Shown here: piece after piece, positions 339 to 40,080 of the stretch
How positions within the stretch are numbered: position 1 is the first letter of the stretch
Layout: each line of letters starts with the position of its first letter
Virus record (IMG/VR): IMGVR_UViG_3300019781_000026
Coordinates: 1 to 40,080 of that record
Length of the DNA: 40,080 nucleotides
Direction: 5' to 3' (one strand)
Origin: a virus
Lineage: Duplodnaviria > Caudoviricetes
Translations under genes and position numbers: made by a program
Notes under the pieces: model-generated
Database searches by the model: none
Seen by the model: only the letters and a program-made list of their open reading frames with translations
What the model was told of the DNA's origin: nothing

Positions 339-367
339 TGTTTTTAGATTTAGTTTGAATGATGGTG

Positions 368-399
368 CTAAGATACGGTTGTTATGTTTAAACCGCAAA
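368..399 (-). promoter_or_regulatory. Bacteroidota-type promoter for the erf/replication operon
   Basis: Minus strand TTTG-N20-TATCTTAG, close to the consensus TTTG-N19-21-TAnnTTTG. Confidence 0.65.
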
Positions 400-732: not shown

Positions 733-975
733 ATGACTTACAAATTAACAGTTACGGAAACAGGGAACAAAGCCGGTAAATTTTCTTACACAGTTGTTGA
801 TGAAAACGGAACTATTATTTCTACCCGTAAAAGTAACAGGGAGTATGTGGCCTGCACTATTAATGGCTCATATTATTTTGGCCGGTTGGATTTGATAGGT
901 AAAGGCGATCACGGTAAGCAAGTAAAATGGTGTATTGAGCATTCTCAGGAAGTTGTCCCTATTGCATATAAATAA
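733..975 (+). CDS. Hypothetical early protein
   Basis: 80-aa ORF with an A-rich leader, following a promoter. Confidence 0.75.
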   Translation: MTYKLTVTETGNKAGKFSYTVVDENGTIISTRKSNREYVACTINGSYYFGRLDLIGKGDHGKQVKWCIEHSQEVVPIAYK

Positions 976-1010
976 CCTTCCTGTTTCCTGATAAGTTCAG
1001 GACGGGCGAC

Positions 1011-1035
1011 TAACCGGACGTAAGCGGTTATTTTT
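1011..1035 (+). terminator. Rho-independent terminator-like hairpin
   Basis: TAACCG-N8-CGGTTA followed by TTTTT. Confidence 0.55.
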
Positions 1036-1070
1036 ATTAACCGGGGTAGCACCCAATAAAACGAAAAAAG

Positions 1071-1331
1071 ATGGTAGAGTATTTAGATAAGGTAGTGTTT
1101 AATTTCATTACCGTTACAGGGCATCAGGTAGATGTATCTTATATTTCTACTGGAGAATTAAATAAAGGTCGGGCAGAATACCGGGTGTATGTATCGTTTG
1201 CTGGTAAAATAGGCAGACCACAAGGTACATATTGGGGGTATATTAATAAAACCAATGCCGGTAAATATCTATCCGAATTTCTAAAAACGGATTATGCCAA
1301 ACAGTGTGCTATTAATATACCAGTAAATTAA
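1071..1331 (+). CDS. Hypothetical protein
   Basis: 86-aa ORF in the early operon. Confidence 0.65.
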   Translation: MVEYLDKVVFNFITVTGHQVDVSYISTGELNKGRAEYRVYVSFAGKIGRPQGTYWGYINKTNAGKYLSEFLKTDYAKQCAINIPVN

Positions 1332-7968: not shown

Positions 7969-8397
7969 CTAATGATTTTTTAAATATTTTTCTATCCCCT
8001 TCTCACAATCCGCACTCCCGATGGAAGTAATTATAAACCTCACCACCTTACTTCGCCTTGTCAGATAATACAATGTTATTACTAACGCCAATCCACCTAC
8101 TGTAATTTGAAAAACAATATTGTAAATATCGTCTTTCTGAAAAATAAGATAGTAAGCCGCAAACAAACATTCCGCTATCGCTGCCGCCCTGCTTACATAA
8201 CAGAACTTAAAACTAAACGCAACGGCTAACATAAACAACGGGAATAGTAAGTTAGTCCCTACTGCCATGTTAAGATACATTCCGTTCCGGTAATAAAAAT
8301 CAGCGTCAATAAAATAAAGAACATTTGCCAACACTTGCAAGGTTACCAGTATCACCGGAAACCAAGAAATAGTAAGTATTGACATCCTTTTAATCAT
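7969..8397 (-). CDS. 4-TM membrane protein
   Basis: Four hydrophobic segments; translationally coupled. Confidence 0.7.
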   Translation of the reverse strand: MIKRMSILTISWFPVILVTLQVLANVLYFIDADFYYRNGMYLNMAVGTNLLFPLFMLAVAFSFKFCYVSRAAAIAECLFAAYYLIFQKDDIYNIVFQITVGGLALVITLYYLTRRSKVVRFIITSIGSADCEKGIEKYLKNH

Positions 8398-8912
8398 TTG
8401 CTATGTTTAGCGCATCCAACGGAAACAATCACCGTCCCATCTTCTTTACGAGGTACAACGGCATGGTAGTCTATAATTTTCAAAGTTCTTGTCCTGCCTG
8501 TTTTTATCGTATAACTCCCCGAAATATATTTAGTCCCGGTACTTATATTACTACTCCATTCTTTCCATGCCCTTTCCCGGTCTGTATCAATTATAAAATT
8601 AGTCCAGCCCGAACCTTTCATTTGTTCTTGTGTTGTTTCAAACAGTTCGCATAATGCCTCGTTAGCCAATACACATAGTCCCTGATGGTCGCAGATAAAA
8701 AAGCAATCATGCAGTAGCATTACAAGGCCATCTATTTTGCCTGAAACGAAATCAATGCTTTGCGTGTTGGTGTCAAGTTCCTTTTTATTTTCTTCGTATT
8801 CTTCTAAGAACTTTATTAACTCTTTTATCCGGTTGTACATCCAACGTAAGCCGCCAAAGAATACCCCCACTAAGGTTAATAATGTGAGCCATTCTTTCCA
8901 GTTAAAAATCAT
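8394..8912 (-). CDS. Membrane-anchored PAS-domain protein
   Basis: N-terminal TM, coiled coil, then FFICDHQGLCVLANEALCELFETTQEQMKGSGWTNFIIDTDRE...EDGTVIVSVG, a classic PAS pattern. Confidence 0.8.
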   Translation of the reverse strand: MIFNWKEWLTLLTLVGVFFGGLRWMYNRIKELIKFLEEYEENKKELDTNTQSIDFVSGKIDGLVMLLHDCFFICDHQGLCVLANEALCELFETTQEQMKGSGWTNFIIDTDRERAWKEWSSNISTGTKYISGSYTIKTGRTRTLKIIDYHAVVPRKEDGTVIVSVGCAKHSK

Positions 8913-17373: not shown

Positions 17374-19460
17374 CTCACTCCCGCCCTCCCTTGCGCCCTT
17401 GACGTTCTTGCGTTCTGTAAAATCATATCATTACCCCGTAATCTACCGGTAACGACTACCCGCTGTAATTGACCGCCACCGCCTAACCCGGCTAACATAC
17501 CCCGCAATTTATCCAACGGGGCAACTACTTCCGGGTTTGATCTGCTGGTTCCCGAACCTTCACCGATAAGGGCAAGTTGTGGGCCGGTAACTAAACCACC
17601 GGAAGCGAAGCCTAATATTTTCCCGAATATGGCACCGAATCCTTTTGCACCCCCTATTCCCCCTGGTAATACTGCACTAAGGATGGCCGCTGTGATAGCG
17701 GCTGAAATAAGTTTTTTAATTAGTTGTGAAACGGCATCGCCGATCCCTTTGAAAAATGCTTTTAAAGGGTTTTCACCTTCTTTTATCGCATCAAATAATC
17801 CTGCAAAAGCAGGCTGTAAAATATTATTTATAACCGTTGCGGCCCGTATTGCCCCGGCTTCAATGCCGCTAAATAATTCTTTTGGTAAGTCAGCGAAAAG
17901 AGTATTAGTAGGGAAAAGACTTTTAAGAATGTTAGCCCGGTCTTTCTCTTTTTGCTCTAATCTTACCGCCGCATCAATAGTAACATCAACCGGTCTATCT
18001 TTAAAATAATCCGTGTACTCCTTGCCTAATACCGCTGCGAACCTTTCTGCATCGGTTCTGTTATCAGTTATAACCTCTTCAGGTGGTGGGTAGTTTACCT
18101 CAACTTCGGGGGTTATTTTTAGTTTTATATCTGTTATGCTAATACCCCCTTGTATGGCAAAATTAATCAGGTCAACTTGTTTCTTTAAATCCTCCCGACT
18201 TAATTTTAACTCAGGGTCAATAGTGACAGAAAACTTCTTGTTCTTAAAATCATCCAAAAACTTTAAAGACTTTTCAAACTCTTGCTGCTTAGTATCAAAA
18301 AATCTTACATCTAATTTTAAGTCAATTTGATTTTTAAAAGCATCTGATAATTTCTTTGCTTCGCTTATTGTGTCAGATACATATTTCTCATAATCAGCTT
18401 TTCGTTTATCTGATAAAGCCTTTGCATCTTGTGCAGCCTTTTCATTAACTGCTTTTTGTTTTTCTTGTTCGTCTGCAATGGCCTTACCTATCTCAACCGG
18501 GATATTCAACAAGTTTAATAAAGTACCTTGTTGTAACCCTTTCAAATCGTTCTCTAAAGATTTAACTTCTTTTCGCACCGCCTGGAATTGCGTTACCGCT
18601 GAAACCCCGGCTTCGTCTAATTTCTTAATGAAGTTTACCGGGATATTTTCTATACTACCAAACTGCTTTATCAGTTTATCCAACTCAGTTGAGTTGCCCC
18701 GGTTAAACGACCTCAATGCTGCATTGCTTTCACCGATATTAATAGATAACCCCGTTTGCTCTTTTCTTAACTCAGCAATCTTAGACTTTATTTTTTCAAT
18801 ACCCTCAACGTTCCGACCTATTTCGTCCGCATTGTTTGCAATGGTTAATGACGGACCTTTGAGACCCGCCAATTCATTTTGCAGCTTTTGCACCTTCCCT
18901 TTAAATTCTAAGGAGTCTTTGAAATTCTCAACATCGGCCTTAATGTCCCGCATCATATTACCGAACTTCCCGGCAGATATTTCAGCCTTACTAAATAAAG
19001 CGTCTGCCCCGAATATGGCCGTTTTCAATCCATCCAAAACACCAATAAGAAGATTCCCGGCTAATTGCCCCACCCCAAAAGCCCCGGCTATTTTAAAGAA
19101 AGATGCAGCCCCGTTATTTGCCGCATTGGATAACGTAGGTATTTGTGTAGCGGTTGTATTAAGAACACCTGATAGGCTTCTTAGTTTAGATCCTGCCAAC
19201 ACACCTGATTCACCAAGTATGGTAAACCCACTTGCCCCGGTTGTTTTTAACGTATTGGCAAGTGCTGTGATTGCACTACCCGCCTGCTTTGTTGATTGAG
19301 AAAATTTTGAAGAAACTGCCGTAGATGCAGTAGTTGCCGTGGATGCTAATTTCGTAAACGAACCCGCTGCCGTGTTCGCCGCCGCTGGTATATCTTTGGA
19401 TAAGGCTCTGACCGCCTGACTAACGTCCGCCCCTACCTGTATTTTAAGACCTTCCGGCAT
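17370..19460 (-). CDS. Tail tape measure protein
   Basis: Ala/Gly/Lys-rich helical protein after the tail chaperones; C-terminal FASGGLVTGPQLALIGE...PEVVAPL motif. Confidence 0.9.
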   Translation of the reverse strand: MPEGLKIQVGADVSQAVRALSKDIPAAANTAAGSFTKLASTATTASTAVSSKFSQSTKQAGSAITALANTLKTTGASGFTILGESGVLAGSKLRSLSGVLNTTATQIPTLSNAANNGAASFFKIAGAFGVGQLAGNLLIGVLDGLKTAIFGADALFSKAEISAGKFGNMMRDIKADVENFKDSLEFKGKVQKLQNELAGLKGPSLTIANNADEIGRNVEGIEKIKSKIAELRKEQTGLSINIGESNAALRSFNRGNSTELDKLIKQFGSIENIPVNFIKKLDEAGVSAVTQFQAVRKEVKSLENDLKGLQQGTLLNLLNIPVEIGKAIADEQEKQKAVNEKAAQDAKALSDKRKADYEKYVSDTISEAKKLSDAFKNQIDLKLDVRFFDTKQQEFEKSLKFLDDFKNKKFSVTIDPELKLSREDLKKQVDLINFAIQGGISITDIKLKITPEVEVNYPPPEEVITDNRTDAERFAAVLGKEYTDYFKDRPVDVTIDAAVRLEQKEKDRANILKSLFPTNTLFADLPKELFSGIEAGAIRAATVINNILQPAFAGLFDAIKEGENPLKAFFKGIGDAVSQLIKKLISAAITAAILSAVLPGGIGGAKGFGAIFGKILGFASGGLVTGPQLALIGEGSGTSRSNPEVVAPLDKLRGMLAGLGGGGQLQRVVVTGRLRGNDMILQNARTSRAQGRAGVR

Positions 19461-20132
19461 TGCTTAATTTTTTTGCGGCCTCTGCTACTTTGAACGAACG
19501 CAATACCTCAAACGCCTTTTCACTTATATTGCCCCTATCCGTATCCGTTGGTAATGGCCATAATTTATTTATCTTACTTGCTACTTTAGCCCCACCCATA
19601 TTAGTAGAGGCTATAATTACTGTCATACGCCGATACATTGCCTGCATCATTATATCCCTATCCCGAAGGCCATTGATAGCTAACACCAACTCCCGGAAAG
19701 TATATTGTCCTAACTCCCAGGGCCGGATTCCAAGTTCTCCAAAGGCAAGCTGTTCGATTCCATCGAAGTCTCTTTCGACTGATCCGCTACCTGATTTTTT
19801 TTTTCAGCGTCTTTTATTAGGTTTTGAACGTCCTCACTATTACGCCAAACCGTAATTATATCAGATAGTATCTGCTTACCTTCTTCCGTTTGTGCTATTT
19901 CATCAATGGCCCGGCTGAAATCTTCCACCGTCAGGATAGCCTGAATATTTTTATTCACACAATTATTTTCATAACCGCTGTGAATTATTCTGCTTAACCC
20001 AATATCGGTTAACGTTCCATCTTCTTCAATCAGCAGATCGGCGTTTTTGCCCGTCCTGATTGACTTATAAGACAGATAACCGAATTTCAGCCCGACCTCT
20101 TTGCCGGCAATGGTGATCCTTGTATAACTCAT
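19444..20132 (-). CDS. Tail assembly chaperone gpGT (programmed -1 frameshift product)
   Basis: A -1 shift at the A10 run (19795-19804) gives KKKSGSGSVERDFDGIEQLAFGELGIRPWELGQYTFRELVLAINGLR..., open into ORF 19444-19689. Confidence 0.85.
19710..20132 (-). CDS. Tail assembly chaperone gpG
   Basis: Lies between the tail tube and tape measure genes; EKKN slippery site near the C-terminus. Confidence 0.85.
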   Translation of the reverse strand: MSYTRITIAGKEVGLKFGYLSYKSIRTGKNADLLIEEDGTLTDIGLSRIIHSGYENNCVNKNIQAILTVEDFSRAIDEIAQTEEGKQILSDIITVWRNSEDVQNLIKDAEKKNQVADQSKETSMESNSLPLENLESGPGS

Positions 20133-27480: not shown

Positions 27481-27613
27481 TTATATATTTTTCTACTGCT
27501 AAGGTAAGTATTTCTATTGATTTATGAATTACACCCCAAATTTGCGCCACTAAATCAGCCGCCCACTCTAACAGTAACAGGGGTATGTAAACGATGTAGA
27601 GGAGTTTTTTCAT
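27449..27613 (-). CDS. 54-aa hydrophobic protein MKKLLYIVYIPLLLLEWAADLVAQIWG...
   Basis: ATG overlaps the TerL TGA; the ORF fills the TerL-portal gap. Confidence 0.5.
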   Translation of the reverse strand: MKKLLYIVYIPLLLLEWAADLVAQIWGVIHKSIEILTLAVEKYINEPIKPPPGK

Positions 27614-28968
27614 ACGCTTGTCGCTGTCATTACAAATTTAGGTTTTAATTCGAACCACATTCGCATTAATATCGCATCCCAAAAGTCAGGACTTCGCCCG
27701 ATAGCTTCTTTAATCTTATCTTTTGGCATTAACCCTTTCTTCATATCGCTATCCAAAAGTTTCTGCTTCACCTGTTCAAACTCCTCAATAATCAAAGGCT
27801 GCATCCAATCTTCACACTCCAAATATAAACCATTTGTATTAATTATTTCAGCCATCCTAAAACCACATTGACTTTTGATGTTGTCAAAATTTTCAACAAC
27901 CGGCTTCCCATTTGCATCTAACGGTTTCTTCGGATCAGCCATTGGCCGGGCATTATTGGTAAATCCTTTAAACCCTCCGAAGTCCTCAACTCCGGAACCC
28001 ATGCCATCGCTATCAACCAGCACATCTGACTTGCCGCATCCCATTCGATGCCGGGCCGCCTCAATATTAGTAGTCGATACCGTTAGTTTCTCTTTTGAAT
28101 AAGCCTGCACTTTACCCCTCATCCCGTTCCACTCTATTATCACAATCCTATCACCACCTAACCGGGCTATGTCAGCGGTGATACACTTACGCCCTTCCGG
28201 TACATGATTGTTTGTGAATACATCAACCGCCTTTTCGTAATCAATTAAACAGGCGGGATCCGTATCAGTTTCCCACTCACCATGCAGCAACCTTTTTTTC
28301 TCATTCGTGTTTAATACCCGCTCCAAATTTTCCAGGTAGCCATCGGGTAGCCGCTTATTATCCTTTGGGAGGGCTTGCACAAATTTCTTCCATACATCTA
28401 AGGTTCCTGACTTATATGGTTTATAGTAATCCCGATATAAATAATTTTTAGAAGGGTTACAAGTTTGTAACAATTTAGGGTGCAACCCGTAAACATCATT
28501 TTTCCAACGGCCTATACTTGCCGATAGATTATTTTTAGCCGCCTCAACTAATTCCCCAGCTTCCTCTATAAAACCCCGTGTCATCTGCATTGAACCGAAA
28601 CGATAGTAATCAGGGTCGCTTGGGGCGTAATCAGCATCGAGTAAATAAATACGGGACTTGTTGTTTAACTCAAAATAATTATCCTGCCCGTTGTACTTCC
28701 AATAAGCTGATGTAATCTTCCAATGTGCGAACACTTCATGTATGGAAGGGATAGTAAACTTACGGATATTAGTAAGCGATTTTCTGGCAATGAAGTAGGA
28801 CGTTTCCGGGTAAATAAAAGCGTCCCCGAAAATAAGGGACACCCCTAAGTAAGACTTACCACTACCTTTTGACCCACCGTAAACAATGTCGGACGTTTCT
28901 TTATCTAACCAATACCGGGCAACCTCTTTCTGCTTTTCATTGCCATATGTGTTGAAGGTTAATTTCAT
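27610..28968 (-). CDS. terL: Terminase large subunit
   Basis: Walker A GGSKGSGKS, Walker B FIEEA, TCNP coupling motif, nuclease ADIA...D and SPDFWDA. Confidence 0.95.
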   Translation of the reverse strand: MKLTFNTYGNEKQKEVARYWLDKETSDIVYGGSKGSGKSYLGVSLIFGDAFIYPETSYFIARKSLTNIRKFTIPSIHEVFAHWKITSAYWKYNGQDNYFELNNKSRIYLLDADYAPSDPDYYRFGSMQMTRGFIEEAGELVEAAKNNLSASIGRWKNDVYGLHPKLLQTCNPSKNYLYRDYYKPYKSGTLDVWKKFVQALPKDNKRLPDGYLENLERVLNTNEKKRLLHGEWETDTDPACLIDYEKAVDVFTNNHVPEGRKCITADIARLGGDRIVIIEWNGMRGKVQAYSKEKLTVSTTNIEAARHRMGCGKSDVLVDSDGMGSGVEDFGGFKGFTNNARPMADPKKPLDANGKPVVENFDNIKSQCGFRMAEIINTNGLYLECEDWMQPLIIEEFEQVKQKLLDSDMKKGLMPKDKIKEAIGRSPDFWDAILMRMWFELKPKFVMTATSV

Positions 28969-29585
28969 TCGTAGATCGAAGGTACCGGGTAAAGTGCCTC
29001 AAAGTTAATAAACTTCGCCGTGTGTTCATTCGTGCTGAAAAACGGGCCGCTTGCAACTTGCCCTTTCTGCCTGATTTTACAGTCGGGCAATTTAACACCA
29101 CCACCGATAAAATTACCGTACAAGGATTTACTTAAGTATTCTTTATTAAACCAATCTACATCATTCGACTCCCGGTATTTCTCCCGGTTAATAACCATTG
29201 GTGTATGTATATCGTAAAACAATCCATCCGGGTAAACATTCATAGTATTGTTACGCCTTACGTTATACTTACCAAATACTTTTGCATCCAATAAAAAGCA
29301 GTTATAATAATTCGGCAATGTTTCGTCAAAATCTTCCCTGGCAAAAATATCGTCATTAGTATATAGAAAATCTTCGTAAGGCGACCGGCTTATTTTAGTC
29401 ATTATATTAAACTCCTTCCGGGGGGTATCTTCCATTGGTATAAATTCCCCTTTGTACCAAAATGGCTTTTCACCAATAAGGCAAACGCCTGATAATGGTT
29501 TGAAGTGCTTAACCAGCGACCTGATTGCATAACGCAACTCTAAACCGTTGTTAATGCAGTTACGGTATGGTATGACCGCTTTTAT
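28965..29585 (-). CDS. Stealth-family hexose-1-phosphate transferase-like protein (5' end lacks ATG)
   Basis: ELRYAIRS, FLYTNDDIF, HTPM and FFSTN...YPVPSIYE resemble Stealth CR2-CR4. The frame extends upstream of TTG 29537 as IKAVIPYRNC. Confidence 0.7.
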   Translation of the reverse strand: MKAVIPYRNCINNGLELRYAIRSLVKHFKPLSGVCLIGEKPFWYKGEFIPMEDTPRKEFNIMTKISRSPYEDFLYTNDDIFAREDFDETLPNYYNCFLLDAKVFGKYNVRRNNTMNVYPDGLFYDIHTPMVINREKYRESNDVDWFNKEYLSKSLYGNFIGGGVKLPDCKIRQKGQVASGPFFSTNEHTAKFINFEALYPVPSIYE

Positions 29586-30427
29586 TTTAAAAATTCTTTA
29601 TACCGTTCTATTAACTTCCCGTTGCTATGTGCCTCATAAATTGGGCATAACGTATCTGCAAAGTCTCTAATTATATTATCAATAGTATTATTTTCAACCC
29701 GTATCGTTTCAGGTAAGTGCCGGAACATTTCACTATCACTTACACCAATAGGACGTTTAACAGACAAAGCGTAATCAATAGCTGAGGATAACCCCCTGCC
29801 ATGTGATTGCCGGTATAAAAATAAATTTATAGTATTCGCTGCCAAAAAATCTAACAAATCTGATTGACTTAAATAATCATGGTTAATCTCAACCTCAATA
29901 CTGCTGCCTTTTAAGATAGCCCTCACCTTGTCAGCCTCCCGTCTTGCTAAGTATCCGTCCCTGTCACCGTACTCAGCGAAAGGTATATTTAATTTAATAG
30001 TAGCAGATTTATATTGCGCTTTCACTATTTCGGCTATCCGGGGGAAGTTTTTATCAGGGAACCCAAAACCAAAACTACCCACCGTAAAATTGTTTGACGG
30101 GGTAACATTATCGCAATTAAATAATGGTCTTATACTGGTATCAATTATTTTGTCAGGCGTAAACTGCATAGCAGCTTCATGAAAAATAGCGTAATGTTTT
30201 ATACTTCTATCAATAACCCCGTCAGTAACAAAGCCTAATGTAGCGTAATGGTAATTGTATAAAACTATGTCGGGTCTTGAGATGGCAACCGCCTGCAAAT
30301 AATCAACTTCATTATTTACCTCTGACAATTCAATATCGAAATGAGGTTTAAGTATGTTGAATAATCTTAAACCATAGTCAGCAACCCCGCATTGTTTAGC
30401 CTTACGGCTTATCATTAATATTTTCAT
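29582..30427 (-). CDS. GT-B (GT4-like) glycosyltransferase
   Basis: CGVADY, SFGFGFPDKNF and GLSSAIDYALSVKRPIGVS motifs. Confidence 0.75.
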   Translation of the reverse strand: MKILMISRKAKQCGVADYGLRLFNILKPHFDIELSEVNNEVDYLQAVAISRPDIVLYNYHYATLGFVTDGVIDRSIKHYAIFHEAAMQFTPDKIIDTSIRPLFNCDNVTPSNNFTVGSFGFGFPDKNFPRIAEIVKAQYKSATIKLNIPFAEYGDRDGYLARREADKVRAILKGSSIEVEINHDYLSQSDLLDFLAANTINLFLYRQSHGRGLSSAIDYALSVKRPIGVSDSEMFRHLPETIRVENNTIDNIIRDFADTLCPIYEAHSNGKLIERYKEFLK

Positions 30428-30908
30428 ACCAATCTTCGTAAATTAACCCAAAATAATTTGGGTCTAAACATTTAACGTCTTTATGCGATCTATTAAATCC
30501 CTTTGTAGTAAGGTACTCATAAATTCTTTGCTGCCGGTCACTTCCCTCCAAATATTGGTTGTGTTCAATAGTGATAAACCGTACATGGCTCCTTTCAAAA
30601 TTAAACTCTTTTATTACTTGTTCTTCTTCACCATCAACATCAATAGATAAGTAGTCAATAACCTTTGGCATCCCTGGAATAACAATTCCCCTACCCGCAT
30701 ACATTTTTAATGTAGCACATTGTCTATTTAATTTCAATTTTTCAAACGCCCCGCCCGGTTCAACACATACACCCTCCCAGCCTGCTGTTTCTAAGGCGTA
30801 TGTATTGCTGCTTTCAATCCCATCATGCGCACCAATATCTACAAAAAAACCATTAGGCCCGAATCTGTTTAATACATATTCATCCTGCCCGGCCTGACTA
30901 TAAAACAT
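30402..30908 (-). CDS. FkbM-family SAM-dependent methyltransferase (start revised to 30908)
   Basis: YSQAGQD, FFVDIGAHDG..SNT, VEP, IDYLSIDVDG and ITIEH motifs. Confidence 0.85.
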   Translation of the reverse strand: MFYSQAGQDEYVLNRFGPNGFFVDIGAHDGIESSNTYALETAGWEGVCVEPGGAFEKLKLNRQCATLKMYAGRGIVIPGMPKVIDYLSIDVDGEEEQVIKEFNFERSHVRFITIEHNQYLEGSDRQQRIYEYLTTKGFNRSHKDVKCLDPNYFGLIYEDWYENINDKP

Positions 30909-31506
30909 AACTAAACTTTTTAAATATTTTTTCTTCTCCAATATAAGCCTTCGCATCCACCTGGTTTAATACTCCTATTCGTGGGACATCTAAGGCATGA
31001 GCAATAGCAAGAGGTAATGATTGCTCCCCTGCAAAGTGATTACAGGATGCAATAATTGTAAATAATTCAGATAGCGACACGAAGCTATTACCTATGTCCT
31101 CGCCTTCTACTTCCGGCCACCTTCCGGCTCTTGCAGGGTGTAAGCTAAAATGTGCAACGTTACGGCTCGATCCTTTTGGCCACTTCATCCATGCTATTCC
31201 GTTAATAGGGACATTAAACATCTTTGAAAGTAATACTGTCCAATTATCACTATACGCCTTACTTCGCCACATATTTAGATTTATTGCATCTTCACCGTTA
31301 TACACTTGAACACTATTAGCGTAATCTTGGAATAATAACACAGGCCTTAATTCTTCTACCGTTTTATCAATATCGTAAATAAACCCGTCTGAATGTAAAT
31401 CCCGGCGATCTGTTATATATAAATCATGTTTACCTGGTGTATTAGCCACCACATACATCATGTGAATTAAATCACCCATCCGACCACCTAAAATAAATTT
31501 AGCCAT
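30898..31506 (-). CDS. GT9-like (heptosyltransferase-like) glycosyltransferase
   Basis: GRMGDLI N-terminal motif; F.G.QS.PLAIAHALDVP C-terminal motif. Confidence 0.65.
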   Translation of the reverse strand: MAKFILGGRMGDLIHMMYVVANTPGKHDLYITDRRDLHSDGFIYDIDKTVEELRPVLLFQDYANSVQVYNGEDAINLNMWRSKAYSDNWTVLLSKMFNVPINGIAWMKWPKGSSRNVAHFSLHPARAGRWPEVEGEDIGNSFVSLSELFTIIASCNHFAGEQSLPLAIAHALDVPRIGVLNQVDAKAYIGEEKIFKKFSYVL

Positions 31507-32836
31507 AAGATTTACCTTGCATAGTTGACTTATAATCAGGATTGCTTACCCAGCCATCCGCAAACTCATTCGTATTTGGGAAGTAAGGAGTATAATCATA
31601 CACCGGGAAATTATATTGATGCCACCCATAACCGATAAACCCCTCCGCTTCGTGCCTATGTGTTAAAGCTGGTTTTGGCCACGTCCGCATTAATTCGCAA
31701 TGTGTCCAAAAAAAAGTACCAGCAAACATAAAGTTACCCACTTTGTGTTCTGGCATTGCACCTATAATCGGTTGAATCCAATGGCAACCTACTGCCCCGT
31801 GTGTTTTTAATTTCTCAACACAATCAGACCAATTAATAACGTTCCAATAAATCATAGACCTTCTCCAACGAATGTTAACCGGGGAAGAATTACTCGACCC
31901 CTTACTGTGAGCATAAAGAATTAACCCATCGTTTAATTTAGAGAACTCCCACATAGGTATCTGTGTCACTTGTTCCCAACCGTTATCGGCTTCAGCTATG
32001 ATATTAAAAAAGATACCTTGCTCAACTAAAAACTGCTTTACCGCTTTTCTATTTCTTATACTACCTACAAGTCCAATGTTAAAAGTAGTAAGGTTGTCAA
32101 TCAATCCTTTTCTTAAGGCGGCTATATGTTCAGTAACGGCATCTCTCCAGTTACCATCGGCAAATACATGATAGAAATGGTGCATTATTATTTCTTTTTG
32201 TTCTTGTTTAAATACGCTTATATGTTCACTCCCCCTTTCCAATCTTTTACCATAACCAGTATCCCATAACGGAGAAACGTTTATTGCCGATACTTGTACG
32301 CATTGCTTCCCCATCTTTAAAACTTGACGGGTTAACGTATGGCCGCCTCCCCTATGTTCAAACCATAACCCTTGCTCCCTGGTCATCACCGGATCACTTG
32401 GGAATTTTATATTAAGTGAACACTCTTTAGTGATGCAATACGCAACGGTCCTAACGTGGGTAGCTACTGCCTGTGAAATTTGCATGGCTGCAATTCCCAC
32501 ATCTGTTTGCATAGCATTTAAGAAAGGGGTAATAAAATCTTTTTGCATTGGGAAAACATCATCTGTAATCCAAAGTAAGCACTCCCAGTCGTTAGGGAAA
32601 TTTTCAAGTCGTTCTTTGAATACGTCTTGAACTGCTCCTATGTCCCGGCCTATGTTGTGACGTGGAATATATTTAACGCCGGGAACGTTACATATTTCTT
32701 TGCATAGTTCTTTTTCTTCGCCGGTATGTATTATGTGTAAATCAATCCCGTGTTGTTCGCATTGCTGCCAGCAGTATAGCCACCTTTTAAGGTTGCTGTA
32801 TCTGTTATAGACTATAACGGCAACGGCTACTTTCAT
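31499..32836 (-). CDS. Two-domain glycosyltransferase (GT-A/RgpF-like N domain plus second GT-like domain)
   Basis: VIVYNR, NIGRDIGA and TDD in the N half; ILYAHSKG, WRR.M and GTFFW in the C half. Confidence 0.7.
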   Translation of the reverse strand: MKVAVAVIVYNRYSNLKRWLYCWQQCEQHGIDLHIIHTGEEKELCKEICNVPGVKYIPRHNIGRDIGAVQDVFKERLENFPNDWECLLWITDDVFPMQKDFITPFLNAMQTDVGIAAMQISQAVATHVRTVAYCITKECSLNIKFPSDPVMTREQGLWFEHRGGGHTLTRQVLKMGKQCVQVSAINVSPLWDTGYGKRLERGSEHISVFKQEQKEIIMHHFYHVFADGNWRDAVTEHIAALRKGLIDNLTTFNIGLVGSIRNRKAVKQFLVEQGIFFNIIAEADNGWEQVTQIPMWEFSKLNDGLILYAHSKGSSNSSPVNIRWRRSMIYWNVINWSDCVEKLKTHGAVGCHWIQPIIGAMPEHKVGNFMFAGTFFWTHCELMRTWPKPALTHRHEAEGFIGYGWHQYNFPVYDYTPYFPNTNEFADGWVSNPDYKSTMQGKSYG

Positions 32837-33087
32837 TTCTTCTTAGTGGTGTCTATTTGCGGACGGACCTGATTGATTATATCCGTCTGCAATGGTACTA
32901 TCACACTATCCTGAATGTACTTAACTTGCCGGGAAGGGAGGTCTGAATTAATCAGTACGTTGTTGATATACTGCATACCGTTTAAATGTTTCTGCCATTG
33001 CTCTAAGGTGAGTTTGACGGTTAACGGTTTCAAGTCAACAAACGCAAAGAACGGGATTAGTAGTAAGAGGGGGAGGAGTTTTTTCAT
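32833..33087 (-). CDS. Small secreted/periplasmic protein
   Basis: MKKLLPLLLLIPFFA signal-like N-terminus; DSV and DTT sequons. Confidence 0.65.
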   Translation of the reverse strand: MKKLLPLLLLIPFFAFVDLKPLTVKLTLEQWQKHLNGMQYINNVLINSDLPSRQVKYIQDSVIVPLQTDIINQVRPQIDTTKKK

Positions 33088-33287
33088 AATGTTTTAAATT
33101 TATTCCATAAAGAAATCATATAGTTTGCAAGTTCTTCTCTTTCTTCCGGTGTCATTTCTTGTGAATCAATGCCTCTATCATAGCCCTCATAAATATCGCC
33201 ATTGGGGTTAATGCCGATTATTTCATTATTGGCATTAATACGTCTGCCTGTTGTTTCAAACAATAAACCATCTTCTGTTATTTTCAT
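33084..33287 (-). CDS. Hypothetical protein
   Basis: 67 aa, ATGA-coupled. Confidence 0.65.
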   Translation of the reverse strand: MKITEDGLLFETTGRRINANNEIIGINPNGDIYEGYDRGIDSQEMTPEEREELANYMISLWNKFKTL

Positions 33288-33529
33288 TTAAGTATGTTTT
33301 TTATAATACGAGGTATTTTAAAGTAATCATAATGAAAAAGAATAGTTTGAAGGTTATCTATAAAATCATACCCGTCATTCCCAATAGTTATTACGGGGTT
33401 CATTACTCTTTTAGAATCCAGTAAAAACGCTTCTTTTATTTCCAAAAATGTATGCTTCACAATATGTGTTAGAAGTGGAACGTCTTGAGTAGACTCATAA
33501 TTTATTTTAATGTAAGATTTCCCTTTCAT
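33284..33529 (-). CDS. Hypothetical protein
   Basis: 81 aa, ATGA-coupled. Confidence 0.6.
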   Translation of the reverse strand: MKGKSYIKINYESTQDVPLLTHIVKHTFLEIKEAFLLDSKRVMNPVITIGNDGYDFIDNLQTILFHYDYFKIPRIIKNILK

Positions 33530-33783
33530 TCTATTACATATTTTAAATATTCTAACTGAAAATTGTTTTGCTCACACGGTGCAAACCATTGGCTTTTCTG
33601 CACCTTAAAAGTATCTAACCATCTGCCGTATAAGTAAGCCCGGTTGCTTGTATCGCTTCGCAGTAACACCGTGTCCCTTGTGTACTTATGGCTTACTATA
33701 TAAGTATGGTTCCCTGGTTCCTGCACATAGTCTTTAGTGCAGGCGGCGAATAGTAGTATTAGGAGTAAATATCTCATATCCAA
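33526..33783 (-). CDS. Small lipoprotein
   Basis: MRYLLLILLFAAC lipoprotein signal. Confidence 0.7.
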   Translation of the reverse strand: MDMRYLLLILLFAACTKDYVQEPGNHTYIVSHKYTRDTVLLRSDTSNRAYLYGRWLDTFKVQKSQWFAPCEQNNFQLEYLKYVIE

Positions 33784-33980
33784 ACTTTTTTACCCCACCC
33801 ATAAACAAATGTACGACCTGACTTCAAAGAGGTGTAAGTTGCTAACTTTTTTTTATGGTCAAGTTTATTTAACTCATACCGTACATTACCGGTTAGTGAT
33901 AAATAGAAATTTTGCATATCTGGTAAGTCCTTCAACTTTCGGAGAGTTAAAACCCCGCAATGAGTGCTTTTATTTGACAT
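33774..33980 (-). CDS. Hypothetical protein (start revised to ATG 33980)
   Basis: The ATG follows the leader terminator; contains MQNFYLSLTG, similar to the orphan NLYFALT motif at 5342. Confidence 0.6.
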   Translation of the reverse strand: MSNKSTHCGVLTLRKLKDLPDMQNFYLSLTGNVRYELNKLDHKKKLATYTSLKSGRTFVYGWGKKVWI

Positions 33981-34070
33981 AAAATAAAAATCCCCTATCG
34001 ACCGGAATCTCAAGGGGAAATTAATTTGAACGAATCCAAATCGTTTTACATTCCGGCGTATAACGATCTG
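33981..34070 (-). promoter_or_regulatory. Structured leader RNA: hairpin plus terminator with complementary loops
   Basis: CAGATCGTT.TAC[GCCGGAAT]GTA.AACGATTTG, then TCCCCT..[GATTCCGG]..AGGGGA-TTTTTATTTT. Confidence 0.65.
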
Positions 34071-34079
34071 TTTGAAATG

Positions 34080-34112
34080 CTAAGATAGTAATTAAATTGA
34101 AAACCCGGTAAA
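34080..34112 (-). promoter_or_regulatory. Bacteroidota-type promoter heading the glycan/structural/lysis gene run
   Basis: TTTA-N21-TATCTTAG; the -7 box TATCTTAGCA is identical to that of the erf promoter. Confidence 0.6.
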
Positions 34113-34127
34113 TAAAAATAAACCGGG
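34100..34127 (-). terminator. Terminator-like hairpin after terS
   Basis: CCCGGT-N12-ACCGGG followed by TTTT on the minus strand. Confidence 0.45.
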
Positions 34128-34163: not shown

Positions 34164-34553
34164 CTAAACTATATTCATGCCGGTAATCTGTAGCGGCCCG
34201 CCATCAGCCCCGGTCAGTTCGGTTCGTTCTGCGTATCCACGTTTGCGGCCTTTAGTCCGAAGGTAAAAGGTAATAGCTTGGTCAGAGGGTGGGACCGTGT
34301 AAATATGCTCAGTAGTTTTGTCTTGAACCATAACCCCGTTAACCTTTTCAAACAGTTTGCTTTCTACAAAGTCAATAGCTGATTCTTGGATTTCATCACA
34401 AGCCTCTTTAAATTCTAAGTCGTTTTTAAGCCATTCGTAGAAGGTTGACCGGGCTATGCCTGCATCATGGCAAGCGTTGGTGATAATGCCGTGACGGGCT
34501 TCTAATGCTTCCAGAACAGCCTTCTTTATGTCCGATTGTAGCCTATCTTCCAT
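34164..34553 (-). CDS. terS: Terminase small subunit
   Basis: HTH (ACHDAGIARSTFYEW), AITFYLRTKGRKRGY and ELTGADGGP motifs. Confidence 0.8.
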   Translation of the reverse strand: MEDRLQSDIKKAVLEALEARHGIITNACHDAGIARSTFYEWLKNDLEFKEACDEIQESAIDFVESKLFEKVNGVMVQDKTTEHIYTVPPSDQAITFYLRTKGRKRGYAERTELTGADGGPLQITGMNIV

Positions 34554-34800
34554 ATTTCAAATTTACATACTTTTCTTCAATTACAAAATCTTCGTTTATG
34601 TCGGGGCCGTAGCGGGCGGCTACTTTGAACGGGTAGATAGAGCCCGCAAAGATGCGGACTCCTCGATGTAATGCTGTAATAAGTTTCCGGGTGTTGTCCA
34701 CGTTGTAGAATTTATACAGGTGTTTGGTGGCAAGTTGAACGGTTCTGAAAGTCCCGATCAGTTCCTTTGCTTCGGCGTTGTAAAGTTTGATGGAGGGCAT
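34543..34800 (-). CDS. Hypothetical protein, possibly NUMOD1-like DNA-binding
   Basis: LYN....LIGTFRTVQLATKHL pattern. Confidence 0.55.
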   Translation of the reverse strand: MPSIKLYNAEAKELIGTFRTVQLATKHLYKFYNVDNTRKLITALHRGVRIFAGSIYPFKVAARYGPDINEDFVIEEKYVNLKYGR

Positions 34801-34837
34801 ATAATGGTTTTATAATTAAGTTGCAGAAAACCGCAAA

Positions 34838-35137
34838 GGGTAAGAACTATTGAAATTATGTTACCCGGCTACAATTCAATATGGGTAAGGGTTTCAGCGT
34901 TTTCGGGTAAGATAGGTAGGATAAAAAGCGTTTTTTCACACTTTCCTATATCCATAATACACCCCCTCCCTATTACGCTATATGTAACGCTGTATATTAT
35001 GTATATTAACCCTTGTGTATTTTATATATATTATCTTACCTATCTTACCCAAGTAGGTATAATATATTAATAATCAAAGAACTAAGGTGGTAAGATAGCC
35101 ATGTTTTTTATGTTACCCGGCTCTTACCCTTCTTACC
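34838..35137. repeat. Candidate replication origin (GGTAAG/CTTACC iteron-like repeats)
   Basis: 20-bp inverted repeat 34905-34924 / 35031-35050 (19/20), 15-bp direct repeat TTATGTTACCCGGCT at 34856 and 35108, further GGTAAG/CTTACC copies, AT-rich core; directly downstream of the primase. Confidence 0.7.
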
Positions 35138-35140
35138 ACA

Positions 35141-37276
35141 CTAAAACGTTATTCCTGAACCATTTGGGATAAATGAGCCTTTCAGCTTGTCTTTTTCCTC
35201 AATTAAGTACACATAATTGCCCGATCTTTTTACCCGTTCAAACTTCAATCTTTTCAATTCCATCCCGATTCTTCGCAGGGAATACTTTTGGACAGTTTTT
35301 GTCTCCAAAATGTTTTTAACCTCCGAAGTGGTGAGAAAATAATCGGTGGAATGAGTAAAGAACTTCTGCAGCATTTCGTTTTCAAGTGACACCTCTTGAA
35401 ACTTATCTGTATTTGTTGCCAAGCGGTCAATATCTTCCCGGCTTAATTGCCAATCGTAACCCGATTTGTAAAGGTGCCAGGCTTCCATAATCAGGGACGT
35501 TTTATTGATGGCGTTCATGCTGACTATGTTTACCCCGGTTATTTCAATAGGAATAAGGCGGCGGTTTCCGGTCGGGTCATTAAGTATTTCTAAATCATTA
35601 GTGGTTCCACAAAGAACGGCTAACCGGTCAAGGTCAACGTTCATTTTACCGTAAGGCTCCCGGAGTGTAAACGTTTGTTTAGATAACATGGATTTAAGGT
35701 GCAGGGCATCTTTTTTAGACTTGCCCCCGCATTCGTCATCCATCACTATTAACTTTTGTGTCAGCATTAAATTAAAATCGGTGTCTTTCATTCCAGGGGA
35801 CATTTCGGCGTAATAGCTGCGAAGTTCTGCAGGAAGTAAACGGCGGAAGGCTTCTGTTTTCCCGGTGCCTTGTTTTTCCCCGGCGAAGATCAACATTAAG
35901 GGGGAGTGGTTGCCGTAAGCGGAGGCAATTATTGAAACCAGCCACTTTTTACCGAAATACTTTATTTCGTCTTTAGTCTCGAAGCAGCCGAAAAAAGCAT
36001 CAATAACTCCTTCGTGGTTGTTTTCTTTATTCGCATTGAACCAGTCATGCAGCGGGTTATAATCGATTGTGTTGTTGCTGAAAAGAACTTTACAGAATAG
36101 TTCAAAGGTTAGTTTATCGAACATGATAAGGCAATCGAGATACATGGTGTTAAGATGAATTTCATCTAATATCTTACCATCGTTTTCAAGTTTGCGGGTA
36201 ATAACATTCCGTTTTAATTTGTAGTGATGCTTCAGGTGCATTCTTAAACGGTCAACTAAAGGGGCCGCTTCGTTCGTATCGTTGGCGAAGGCTTGCTGAA
36301 TAATGTCATCTACCCCCGTTATGCCTTCGAACTTTTCTAAATTGGTGGCGATTGTTTTAGCATCCAGACCTGACTTTTTCATGCTGCTGGTTGCGGATGC
36401 AATTTTCTTTGTCCGTTCGGACGTGGTGTTTATTCCTGCCTGCTTTGCGTGCCAGTATATAGTTGCTATCGTTATTTTGTTTCCAGGTCTGCCGTTGCGT
36501 TGTAAAGATTGTGTGTACTGCTTATCGCATATTGTGGGGTCATATTTCGAAGATACCGAACTAAGGGAGTGGAAGTATTGGCGGCCGGCTTCCCCGAATT
36601 GATCTGCTAACCCGAAACCAATATCCCGCCAATCCCGGTAATCTTCAACACAAGAAACGCCCTGATTAACCATTTTATTCACCACTTCGTCAAATTCCGA
36701 TTGAACGAAAATAGTAATCGGGATAGATTTCTTTTTTGGTTTAGGCAGGTACTTTTTAAACGTAAGGCATTTATCATTAACGTATAAATCAGGGTCATAA
36801 GAAACGAACCTTGCCCGGCTTTCATTAATTCCGGTACTGTCAATCAGTAGTTGATACTTTCTTATAAAATAATCGGCGATAGCCTCAAATGAGTCCCGGT
36901 GTTTTTCGGGGTTGATTTTGAATATTACACAAAGTCCGTTTCCGGAACATGAAGCGAATAAAGAAAATATATACGGGTCCTGTTCCAATAGAACACGGGT
37001 AGATTCAACTTCGCTGTTAAGGTCATCGAGGTCAATAGCGATAAGTCCTGAATGTACTTTACAATCGGTGTCTATTCGTTTGCCGAATACACCCGATATT
37101 GTTACGTTTGGCAGCTTTGTTTTTTCTGCCCTGCGGATTTCTTTATCCTGAATGGTACGAATTTTTAGAACGGCATCCTGCCATTTACCTTCTTTTATAT
37201 CAGAAAGGAACTCAAGTATAGTGGTGAACTCTTTACTTTCTGTTTGCTTTACGTTGGAGTAAATGGAGATGTTCAT
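35141..37276 (-). CDS. Primase-helicase (BT4734/VirE-N-like, PriCT-2, VapE/VirE ATPase)
   Basis: HSGLIAIDLD and SCSGNG primase motifs; YRDWRDIGFGL PriCT-2; Walker A QGTGKT, VMDDE, REPYG and GTTN...L.DPTGNRR. Confidence 0.9.
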   Translation of the reverse strand: MNISIYSNVKQTESKEFTTILEFLSDIKEGKWQDAVLKIRTIQDKEIRRAEKTKLPNVTISGVFGKRIDTDCKVHSGLIAIDLDDLNSEVESTRVLLEQDPYIFSLFASCSGNGLCVIFKINPEKHRDSFEAIADYFIRKYQLLIDSTGINESRARFVSYDPDLYVNDKCLTFKKYLPKPKKKSIPITIFVQSEFDEVVNKMVNQGVSCVEDYRDWRDIGFGLADQFGEAGRQYFHSLSSVSSKYDPTICDKQYTQSLQRNGRPGNKITIATIYWHAKQAGINTTSERTKKIASATSSMKKSGLDAKTIATNLEKFEGITGVDDIIQQAFANDTNEAAPLVDRLRMHLKHHYKLKRNVITRKLENDGKILDEIHLNTMYLDCLIMFDKLTFELFCKVLFSNNTIDYNPLHDWFNANKENNHEGVIDAFFGCFETKDEIKYFGKKWLVSIIASAYGNHSPLMLIFAGEKQGTGKTEAFRRLLPAELRSYYAEMSPGMKDTDFNLMLTQKLIVMDDECGGKSKKDALHLKSMLSKQTFTLREPYGKMNVDLDRLAVLCGTTNDLEILNDPTGNRRLIPIEITGVNIVSMNAINKTSLIMEAWHLYKSGYDWQLSREDIDRLATNTDKFQEVSLENEMLQKFFTHSTDYFLTTSEVKNILETKTVQKYSLRRIGMELKRLKFERVKRSGNYVYLIEEKDKLKGSFIPNGSGITF

Positions 37277-37290
37277 AAATTAAAGAAGAT

Positions 37291-37374
37291 AAAAAAGCCC
37301 CGGACGTAGGAGTGTCGCAGGGCTGGTAATAAATCTTACCACCACCGTCTTAAGCTCCTACCCAAAAGACGGCG
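37291..37374 (-). promoter_or_regulatory. Structured primase leader RNA: three hairpins ending in a terminator, loops 1 and 3 complementary
   Basis: CGCCGTCTT[TTGG-GTAGGAG-CTT]AAGACGGTG; TGGTAA[N6]TTACCA; AGCCCTG.GAC[A-CTCCTAC]GTC-CGGGGCT-TTTTT. Confidence 0.7.
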
Positions 37375-37383
37375 ATTATTATG

Positions 37384-37983
37384 CTAAGTTACTAAATCAT
37401 ACTGAATAAAGAACTCCTCAACGGTTTTAATAAACAAATATTCGCCGCCTGCTTTACGTTCAAGTGCTTGCTCTTTAAGTTGCGCCGGGGAAGGTTTGTC
37501 AGATCCAATTTTGATTTCAAACATAACCGACTTGCCTTTAATGGTACTGCTTATATCAGCCGAACCTTTGCGGGTAGAACCTGGAATGAATATACCGTTC
37601 ACTTGCCTGCCTGCCGAACTAATACGAGTTGCCCGGCATCCTTGCCATGTTAGGTATTCAATAATGAACTGTGTTAACCCGTTCGCCGTTCCGGTATCTG
37701 GCATCTTCGGCTCAAGATAATGACCATCGCTGAATGTCAGCGGAAACCGTTCTTTAAACCATGCTTTATGAGCATCATTATAACGCTGGATTAACTCAGG
37801 CGGTATCGTTGACCGTTTGCGTTTTACTTTCTTATCTAACGACTTCAACAACTTCTCCGCTTCGTGTATATCGGCGATAGGCAGGCGAACGAGTGCCTTG
37901 TCAGCAGCTACCTGTAAATCTACACGGTTGCATTTGATGGAACGGTGGTGCCAGATTTGATATTTCACCTCGTCTATGGTCAT
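37384..37983 (-). CDS. VRR-NUC (PD-D/ExK) nuclease/resolvase-like protein
   Basis: GSADIS...FEIK...KPSPAQ...AGGEY motifs. Confidence 0.8.
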   Translation of the reverse strand: MTIDEVKYQIWHHRSIKCNRVDLQVAADKALVRLPIADIHEAEKLLKSLDKKVKRKRSTIPPELIQRYNDAHKAWFKERFPLTFSDGHYLEPKMPDTGTANGLTQFIIEYLTWQGCRATRISSAGRQVNGIFIPGSTRKGSADISSTIKGKSVMFEIKIGSDKPSPAQLKEQALERKAGGEYLFIKTVEEFFIQYDLVT

Positions 37984-39030: not shown

Positions 39031-39288
39031 TTAAAAAGGGAGATCTGAATTATCAGCAGCGGGCGGCGCATCTTTTGCGGTGGCCTTCGTTATCTTGCCA
39101 TCGGTCCAAAACACTTTGCCGTTCCCGATATAGGTTTTCGGGGCTTTAGCATCCCGTTGCTCTTTGGTTTGTTCCGCATACATCGAAACGTTCTGCCCGA
39201 ACTTGTTTGTTTCATCATTAACGGCAATCGTATAATTTTTATACGTTCCGTCCGGTTGTTTAAATCCAATACTTATTAATGCTGCCAT
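39031..39288 (-). CDS. Single-stranded DNA-binding protein-like
   Basis: Beta-rich, YIGNGK motif, acidic DLPF tail; near erf. Confidence 0.65.
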   Translation of the reverse strand: MAALISIGFKQPDGTYKNYTIAVNDETNKFGQNVSMYAEQTKEQRDAKAPKTYIGNGKVFWTDGKITKATAKDAPPAADNSDLPF

Positions 39289-39580
39289 TGTTTAGCCGGT
39301 TAAGAGAGCCGGTATCTTTTATTGAATGATTAATACATTTATTCCCAAATAGTTTCTCCCGAATTGATAACGTCCTGCCGCAATCGAAATGAGAACAAAT
39401 GTCAGGTTCCCTGGTTGACACCGGCTGAAACGGTATCGGCTTTAATTTATAGCTTTCATCATTAGCGATCCTTACAACGGACGAATAAGATACGGAAAAT
39501 TTGCGGGCCGTTTCCACCCACGGATTACTTTTTGAATGAAAGTAAATATCAATTCTTGTATCTATTGGTATCGGTGTCAT
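39260..39580 (-). CDS. HTH plus zinc-finger protein
   Basis: TARKFSVSYSSVVRI HTH; CSHFDCG...KCINH. Confidence 0.6.
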   Translation of the reverse strand: MTPIPIDTRIDIYFHSKSNPWVETARKFSVSYSSVVRIANDESYKLKPIPFQPVSTREPDICSHFDCGRTLSIREKLFGNKCINHSIKDTGSLNRLNNGSINKYWI

Positions 39581-39592
39581 AATTGGTTGAAT

Positions 39593-39635
39593 AAAAACCC
39601 CGGCTATTACTTAACCCAAGTTATTCGCCGGGGGT
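39593..39635 (-). terminator. Terminator-like hairpin downstream of erf
   Basis: CCCCGGC...GCCGGGG followed by TTTTT on the minus strand. Confidence 0.6.
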
Positions 39636-39715
39636 GCCAGCATTGTGCTGAAACAAGTTAATCCCGCCCCGGTCCGTCCGGTATTTCAACGGGGAGCAGG
39701 GCGTAATATTCTTTA

Positions 39716-40080
39716 TTATCCATTGGTTTGAAATTTAAGTAATTCGGCCTTAACTTTCTTAACGTCTGTCGGTGTTTTGCATTGAGTAACGGCGATCTCG
39801 GCGGACTCCTTTCTCTTATCATCCATTGTAGAGGTTTTAATTAAGTCAGCCAATTCCTGCATTTCTACTCTTGTTGGTTGCCAAGTGGCGGCAGGGGCTT
39901 TCCCTGTTGCGGCGTTGGCATCATCATCTTCCGTTCCGATATTAGTAATAGAAGATAAAGCATACCGCCGGGCATAAGATAACCCGCTACCATGTCGCTG
40001 GGCATCGTTCACTTTATCAACTACTATGCGGGTAAGGCTGCTGATATATTCCCCGGATTCGTGCAGCAATATCGTTTCTA
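39716..40080 (-). CDS. erf: ERF-family recombinase, 3' part (joins 1-338)
   Basis: Q..GS.LSYARRYAL and EDDD motifs; in frame across the terminal repeat. Confidence 0.9.
   Translation of the reverse strand, partial: ETILLHESGEYISSLTRIVVDKVNDAQRHGSGLSYARRYALSSITNIGTEDDDANAATGKAPAATWQPTRVEMQELADLIKTSTMDDKRKESAEIAVTQCKTPTDVKKVKAELLKFQTNG
39954..40080. repeat. Terminal direct repeat, copy 2
   Basis: Identical to 1-127. Confidence 0.95.

Follow-up and report, generated by a model that had tools for sequence, protein, structure and literature searches.

A two-hairpin RNA leader, whose loops are complementary to each other and whose second hairpin is shaped like an intrinsic terminator just ahead of a start codon, occurs twice in the phage genome studied here and turns up, with differing loop codes and a near-constant total length, in dozens of its phage relatives. 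The kissing-loop design is real in this family, and chance is refuted at the family level; covariation, a second copy in the same genome and a set of 69 distinct elements support the preliminary description of the leader as an RNA attenuator with real loop-loop pairing. The leader likely sets how much transcription reaches the genes behind it, and we put at about even the chances that it does so as a ligand-free transcription attenuator acting in cis, in which the kiss would keep the terminator from closing.

The window, i.e., the whole stretch of DNA analysed, is an entire virus record of 40,080 bases with direct terminal repeats. It belongs to a tailed phage whose genes include Erf, a DNA methylase, a nuclease-like gene, a primase-helicase, the small and large terminase subunits (terS and terL), portal, head and tail genes and an endolysin. 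Contigs of its relatives found in named genomes are mostly from Bacteroidota, and the element-bearing ones have the labels Chitinophagaceae, Ferruginibacter or Bacteroidota, which indicates the host group. No window protein scanned matched an integrase or repressor family, and integrases were present in 2 of 40 records (2 of 18 near-complete ones); an integrase- or repressor-linked role for the leader is thus unsupported. Some other places in the window deserve mention in their own right. A PAS-fold protein (8394-8912, minus strand; Pfam PAS_3, E 2e-6) lies within the lysis region, and an 85-aa ORF (39031-39288, minus strand) with homologues in 12 of 18 other records, both with and without the element, ends in an acidic SDLPF tail, which we take to resemble that of single-strand binding proteins. 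The tail chaperone gene has a gap of 249 nt on its 3' side (19460-19710); in siphophages a frameshift extension is usual after this gene. Two hairpins with non-complementary loops, the second followed by a U-run, lie between early ORFs (970-1075, plus strand), and G+C-rich hairpins at 39575-39720 (minus strand) end in a strong terminator-like stem with a U-tract just upstream of ATG 39580, where structure scans detected neither a kiss nor a box.

The leader of the first copy (copy A) is about 94 nt long and separates a promoter-like box from the start codon at 33980. All the parts listed for it in the preliminary description (promoter box, hairpin, terminator hairpin, U-tract, ATG 33980 and upstream hairpin) are present on the minus strand, as laid out here together with the neighbouring genes.

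34164 to 34553, minus strand: terminase small subunit (phrog_4044, E 3e-13), neighbour upstream of copy A
34104 to 34127, minus strand: upstream hairpin with a short U-run (-10.8 kcal/mol, z -2.1)
34078 to 34087, minus strand: promoter-like box TATCTTAG(CA) of copy A, box proper 34087-34080, a variant of the Bacteroidota -7 element TAnnTTTG
34037 to 34070, minus strand: hairpin 1 of copy A, loop GCCGGAAU at 34057-34050, kissing bases 34056-34050
34019 to 34036, minus strand: A/U-rich linker of copy A, 18 nt (family median 16)
33991 to 34018, minus strand: terminator-shaped hairpin of copy A, loop GAUUCCGG at 34009-34002, kissing bases 34008-34002
33981 to 33990, minus strand: U-tract of copy A, read from the sequence, ending at the start codon
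33774 to 33980, minus strand: first gene behind copy A, 68 aa, without a family match
27610 to 33777, minus strand: rest of the unit most plausibly under copy A, i.e., four small ORFs, five larger ORFs and terL, its extent judged from the portal box
27497 to 27506, minus strand: promoter-like box before the portal gene, 26 nt upstream of its ATG, without a kissing leader

The upstream hairpin is probably a terminator that separates terS transcription from the leader. Profile scans gave no family match for the 68-aa ORF, and an Atlas search returned sub-threshold matches only (best feature score 0.80), a lead at most; of the five larger ORFs, one matched an FkbM methyltransferase, one a PHROG of unknown function and the others had no assignment. 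The two loops form the 7 Watson-Crick pairs originally claimed. The eighth, G-U pair is also present, although it takes U34001, the closing base of the terminator loop, and therefore competes with the terminator stem. Just 15 of 65,536 8-mers pair as well with loop 1, as do 2 of 1,680 permutations of loop 2. In a fold without the kiss, the terminator tip favours a UCCG tetraloop register that hides three of the seven kissing bases (whole leader -24.4 kcal/mol in this register vs -22.6 kcal/mol). A conserved leader peptide was rejected, the AUG-UAA of hairpin 1 being missing, by eye, from the second copy.

That second copy (copy B), found by a structure scan before the primase gene (37391-37277, minus strand), has the same design and an unrelated 7-bp code, GUAGGAG/CUCCUAC.

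37382 to 37391, minus strand: copy B's promoter-like box, TAACTTAG(CA), which overlaps the nuclease-like gene at its stop codon
37341 to 37376, minus strand: hairpin 1 of copy B, kissing bases 37361-37355 (GUAGGAG)
37325 to 37340, minus strand: linker of copy B, 16 nt, itself able to form a 5-bp hairpin
37277 to 37324, minus strand: terminator-shaped hairpin of copy B (37324-37296, kissing bases 37312-37306, z -4.3), U-tract and spacer to the primase ATG
35141 to 37276, minus strand: primase-helicase gene behind copy B (phrog_15962; VapE-like, PriCT_2, BT4734-like)

A strict scan of the window returned these two sense elements and a reverse-complement shadow of copy A, vs 5 hits in 60 block shuffles, and their architecture is therefore not a product of chance. 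The broader scan gave 3 hits vs 24 in 100 shuffles (6 of the 24 with a kiss of at least 7 pairs); its third hit (7839-7726) was discarded, as it falls inside an ORF and no start codon follows it. Nowhere else in the window do both loop codes occur together. Behind the primase gene lies an A/T-rich, non-coding-looking stretch (34795-35145) with CTTACC-type words repeated on both strands, as expected for a replication origin.

Taken by itself, copy A might pass for chance complementarity in an ordinary promoter-terminator region, as its fold is only modestly better than shuffles (z -2.1) and no close sequence relative was found by blastn in phages, by exact pattern in viral contigs or by a single-protein terS scan. 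It is a singleton among the sequence clusters, so that its membership rests on architecture. Set against this are the second copy, the shuffle controls, the covariation described below and the fit of copy A to the family geometry (a rod of 31 helical steps and a linker of 18 nt), and we give chance virtually no credence. The position of copy A after a terminase gene is also not singular, since placement after terS or terL recurs in four other loci (L012, L018, L019 and L025).

Loci were gathered around anchor genes (terL, terS, primase and the nuclease-like gene), 2.41 Mb from relatives that are not fully independent, and the broader scan gave 114 hits there vs 8 in one shuffle per locus. On the anchor-gene strand lay 108 of the 114, and the kiss reached at least 7 pairs in 85 of the 114 vs 1 of 8 in the shuffles. 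The hits comprise 77 distinct sequences. Inspection by eye removed 10 of them, which lay on the opposite strand, lacked a start codon nearby or had an implausible fold; the 2 window copies were added, and the resulting 69 curated elements show 56 different kiss codes, each of 6-9 pairs. Two subtypes can be told apart: 47 elements have the kissing partner within or beside the terminator's apical loop, and 22 have it in a 3' bulge beneath an additional apical hairpin. The kiss duplex has a median of -9.3 kcal/mol, the sense strand folds better than the antisense in 64 of the 69, and non-cognate loops form 6 or more pairs in 175 of 4,692 combinations. Copies sharing one genome always differ in code (the window, L183, L216, L248, L253, L255 and G028).

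Complementarity is itself a criterion of the scan, and an independent test was therefore made on the 22 bulge-type elements, aligned with MAFFT without fitting to the structure. The loop covariation predicted for homologues is there: kiss columns are paired in 98.9% of cases, vs 30-42% of cells when the partners are slid by 1-3 columns, with two-sided, compensatory changes in 7 of the 8 kiss pairs, a score reached by none of 500 shuffles. These pair counts hold for the bulge subtype only, MAFFT alignments of the apical subtype being out of structural register. A covariance model (R1), for which RNAalifold took the kiss itself as the main helix, strongly found three new bulge-type elements and missed both window copies; it scored 0/5 in five genomes, one with a known apical element among them, and such a blank is uninformative.

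The scan sorted 106 distinct sites that follow the nuclease-like gene into 56 elements, 6 kiss-less terminators and 44 sites without a terminator. On inspection by eye, loop complementarity is present in five of the six kiss-less cases, in two of them over 5 pairs and in three further downstream, and the sixth is without a box, while at least 6 of the 44 are elements overlooked by the scan. A box followed by a terminator without loop complementarity was seen at none of the 106 sites (scan plus the 50 uncalled sites by eye). In four loci (L229, L246, L251 and L252) another conserved hairpin, without terminator or kiss, lies over the stop codon of the nuclease-like gene. Nineteen whole or partial records hold 0-2 plausible copies each, 14 being positive by scan, one more by eye and four without the element, which is thus dispensable; the primase of these four is placed shortly behind the nuclease-like anchor gene. 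In four loci element pairs lie close together (L183:1844-2649, L216:2153-3103, L253:1981-2445 and L255:2-1204), and in three of them the first element leads an HNH-type endonuclease gene; these pairs suggest that leaders travel with, or get duplicated by, mobile cassettes. A bulge-type pattern matched the GTDB collection and viral contigs 10 times each; 9 of the viral matches and none of those from GTDB passed the scan. A search of 1.38 Mb from two Bacteroidota genomes produced no convincing host copy, just 14 weak hits, 13 of them without a following ORF, and the motif looks phage-specific on this small host sample.

Every curated element has its U-tract 6-25 nt before the next ATG, a statistic biased by the dropping of opposite-strand and ORF-less hits, and at such a distance the downstream genes must be read through the terminator. 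From the 67 first genes found, a selection of 47 was scanned, giving 10 primase-type, 3 helicase, 2 Lin1244_N, 7 HNH/GIY-YIG, 2 other and 23 without a hit, a tally that partly reflects the anchor genes. The 10-mer TANCTTAGCA has four copies in the window, where 0.31 would be expected and a count of 4 came up in 1 of 100 shuffles; all are on the minus strand and ahead of gene starts, i.e., before Erf, the primase, copy A and the portal. The consensus given for the Bacteroidota primary-sigma -7 element is TAnnTTTG (PMC7366714). At 366-375 (minus strand), the same promoter-like box stands 37 nt before ATG 338 with no leader structure; this ATG likely starts the Erf gene, which would span the terminal repeat. 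A box 22-26 nt before the portal start was present in 4 of 8 genomes compared. The stretch most plausibly under copy A is thus 33980-27610, and a promoter without a leader likely serves the structural genes in addition. The run downstream of copy A is near-gapless, as described (4 gaps of more than 20 nt among 39 ORFs), but a late-gene switch for the whole glycan, structural and lysis run is not supported, the portal having its own box and most copies leading primase, helicase or homing-endonuclease genes.

The dimensions of the element follow a length rule. The further the kiss lies from the box, the closer it tends to be to the U-tract (rho -0.79, n = 69; rho -0.71 across 38 sequence clusters, with none of 10,000 permutations as tight); the scan bounds both distances but does not impose the correlation. 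When the first hairpin is short the terminator is long, and vice versa. Stem, kiss and stem together make a rod with a median of 32 steps (IQR 31-34, n = 68), measuring 31 in both window copies, and the linker has a median of 16 nt (IQR 15-18, n = 68), with 9 of the 68 linkers able to form a hairpin. A helical step spans 2.8 A and a nucleotide 5.9 A, and at these values the linker contour comes to about 1.1 rod lengths; a straight rod would leave the linker with almost no slack. Bulge-type elements are about 20 nt longer with the rod unchanged, and the rule is therefore not a limit on total RNA length.

We propose that the host RNA polymerase would start a few bases past the box and that hairpin 1 would fold at the 5' end of the transcript. 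In copies A and B, loop 2 clears the polymerase only with the 3' end in the U-tract (assuming 14 protected nt), so that the kiss and the closure of the terminator would compete there. If the loops paired first, stems and kiss would make up a rod some 31-32 helical steps long, bridged by a nearly taut linker of 16-18 nt, which would leave the G-C base of the terminator unzipped and allow read-through; if the terminator zipped first, an RNA of 90-95 nt would be released. Early zipping could be aided by the kiss-hiding tetraloop register in copy A and by the linker hairpin in copy B. The race would set a limited, condition-sensitive enzyme dose rather than the timing of a whole late program, the dosed genes being the primase (copy B), small ORFs, putative glycan enzymes and terL (copy A) and homing endonucleases in relatives. 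With a median duplex of -9.3 kcal/mol, the kiss may need no ligand. For the guanidine-IV riboswitch, Lenkeit et al. propose that rigid kissing hairpins stretch the linker and block the outer terminator pairs (PMC7736828), and single-molecule work in support of this describes terminator stem elongation as shortening the linker and hindering the kiss (PMC11611296). The conserved rod and tether fit a steric mechanism of this type. Several points speak against attenuation in cis: the geometry equally fits a stable fold that has both the kiss and a complete terminator, the strain would by our estimate be relieved if the kiss were bent or about 3 bp frayed, no input signal was found, and a fixed dose does not explain so elaborate a leader. 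Moreover, the related Gd4v RNA terminates in its ligand-free state (PMC9788692), and default read-through is not guaranteed.

The same parts could also constitute a small-RNA gene, the kiss being its tertiary fold and the downstream genes living on ordinary terminator leak. Promoter and terminator do delimit a separate transcript, rod and linker (contour about 1.1 times the rod) could be constant because folding demands it, and the linkers look A/U-rich. Yet a start codon lies 6-25 nt behind every curated element, with the curation bias noted, the family shows no conserved surface that would suit a shared target, and the bulge-type terminators (-28 to -40 kcal/mol) are very strong to precede primase genes unaided; all considered, we find this explanation distinctly unlikely. 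A small RNA released by termination, as had been offered, would accompany any termination, but it cannot be the whole story because the ATG behind the U-tract is too close to have its own promoter.

The released product might instead act in trans, the terminator loop of the 90-110-nt RNA pairing with loop 1 of a nascent RNA of the same code, blocking its cis kiss and enforcing termination; if true, this would amount to a self-limiting burst or a genome-copy sensor. Opposite-strand promoter boxes are depleted (4 of 68 elements vs 13.3 expected, primary-sigma box tested), so that no antisense promoter would supply an inhibitor, yet the product carries the complement by design; moreover, same-genome copies always differ in code, the kiss duplex has its median at -9.3 kcal/mol and many copies lead replication genes. 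Code differences are, however, also expected from simple drift of a cis pairing, shut-off over time suits a primase better than terL, and the rarity of integrases does not indicate a role in immunity. Such feedback is, in our judgement, quite improbable. Joined to the preferred cis mechanism, it would yield a mechanical RNA switch that is both protein-free and ligand-free, in which a kissing strut of about three helical turns and a 16-nt tether decide termination and the terminated product of the same code shuts off later transcripts; this we hold to be unlikely, but if true each copy would serve phage replication and nuclease genes as an orthogonal, self-limiting counter of dose or of genome copies.

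Proteins are another candidate for the input, with the kissing complex as a shape-recognised handle by which a host or phage protein would switch termination on or off, the timed switch of the preliminary description. Precedents are Rop-like recognition of a kiss and the Q/N-like release of promoter-proximal terminators. Conservation of structure but not of sequence (56 codes in 69 elements) is what shape recognition expects, a promoter followed at once by a terminator resembles antiterminator-released units, and copies precede replication and packaging units. By contrast, BLASTP clustering (E 1e-4) of 19 genomes found no protein cluster common to element-bearing genomes and missing from the others, a comparison that small diverged proteins or a host factor could escape, and no window protein scanned matched an antiterminator family; the portal box has no leader, and the element is present in phages with unrelated head modules. 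We consider such a protein rather unlikely.

If the kiss were stabilised by a metabolite or ion, as in guanidine-IV, the leader would be an orphan riboswitch. There is a weak bias for an A before the kiss and a G-U at its start, but no position in or around the kiss is near-invariant (the best being a G in 48 and a U in 46 of the 69 elements), the genes serve replication and nuclease functions rather than transport or metabolism, and no convincing copy appeared in the host DNA searched, making a ligand very improbable. The guanidine-IV (GGAM-1/mepA) riboswitch is nevertheless among the closest likenesses (PMC7736828, PMC11611296): it consists of two hairpins with a loop-loop pseudoknot, the 3' one an intrinsic terminator, is about 90-105 nt long, lies in a 5' UTR and is proposed to work by steric antitermination through linker stretching. 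Like this riboswitch and the Gd4v motif, our leader has two hairpins joined by a loop-loop pseudoknot and, by shape and position, a Rho-independent-terminator-like 3' hairpin before a coding gene. It differs from guanidine-IV in lacking conserved loop nucleotides and in a kiss of 6-9 Watson-Crick pairs, in being phage-borne, in leading replication, nuclease and packaging genes instead of guanidine exporters and in having no known ligand. The Gd4v motif (PMC9788692) differs from the leader as well: many nucleotides near its pseudoknot are highly conserved, the genes that follow it in gut bacteria are of the transaminase, GNAT and MATE types, and termination is its default in the assays reported. 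None of the 47 first genes scanned gave a SugE, MATE, GNAT or transaminase hit. The Rfam search proposed earlier found no Rfam 15 family at the gathering threshold, just weak matches (E 0.46 or worse) far below the gathering scores. With no conserved pocket, other genes and no Rfam hit, the leader is not a member of the guanidine-IV family.

Plasmid replication genes of the pT181, pIP501 and IncI types are controlled by antisense-RNA attenuators and pseudoknots. These resemble the leader in variable-code loop-loop pairing before replication genes with termination as output, whereas the leader carries both loops in one transcript and opposite-strand promoter boxes are depleted. A promoter followed immediately by a terminator, in more than one copy per phage, recalls lambda pR'-tR'/Q and HK022 put, but no shared antiterminator gene was found in the leader's case (19 genomes, BLASTP E 1e-4), and put RNAs are not known to act as terminators or to have a kiss as their defining feature. 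We found no description of the motif in the literature searched, subscription papers lying mostly outside it, and as far as searched the element is uncatalogued; supplements of three studies (PMC2864571, PMC5737381 and above all PMC10690425, with 10,006 viral candidates) may hold members.

One riboswitch class has been proposed to use a kissing loop for steric antitermination. The leaders described here have this topology in both of its known forms; they are widespread among Bacteroidota phages, have no ligand pocket and keep to a conserved length rule. They offer dozens of naturally occurring variants with which to examine the control of intrinsic termination by tertiary RNA geometry, and a source of short, mutually non-pairing attenuator parts for use in laboratory strains of Bacteroidota. 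For the phages themselves, the leader is a candidate answer to the question of how small phages that use host promoters limit the expression of primase, terminase and homing-endonuclease genes.
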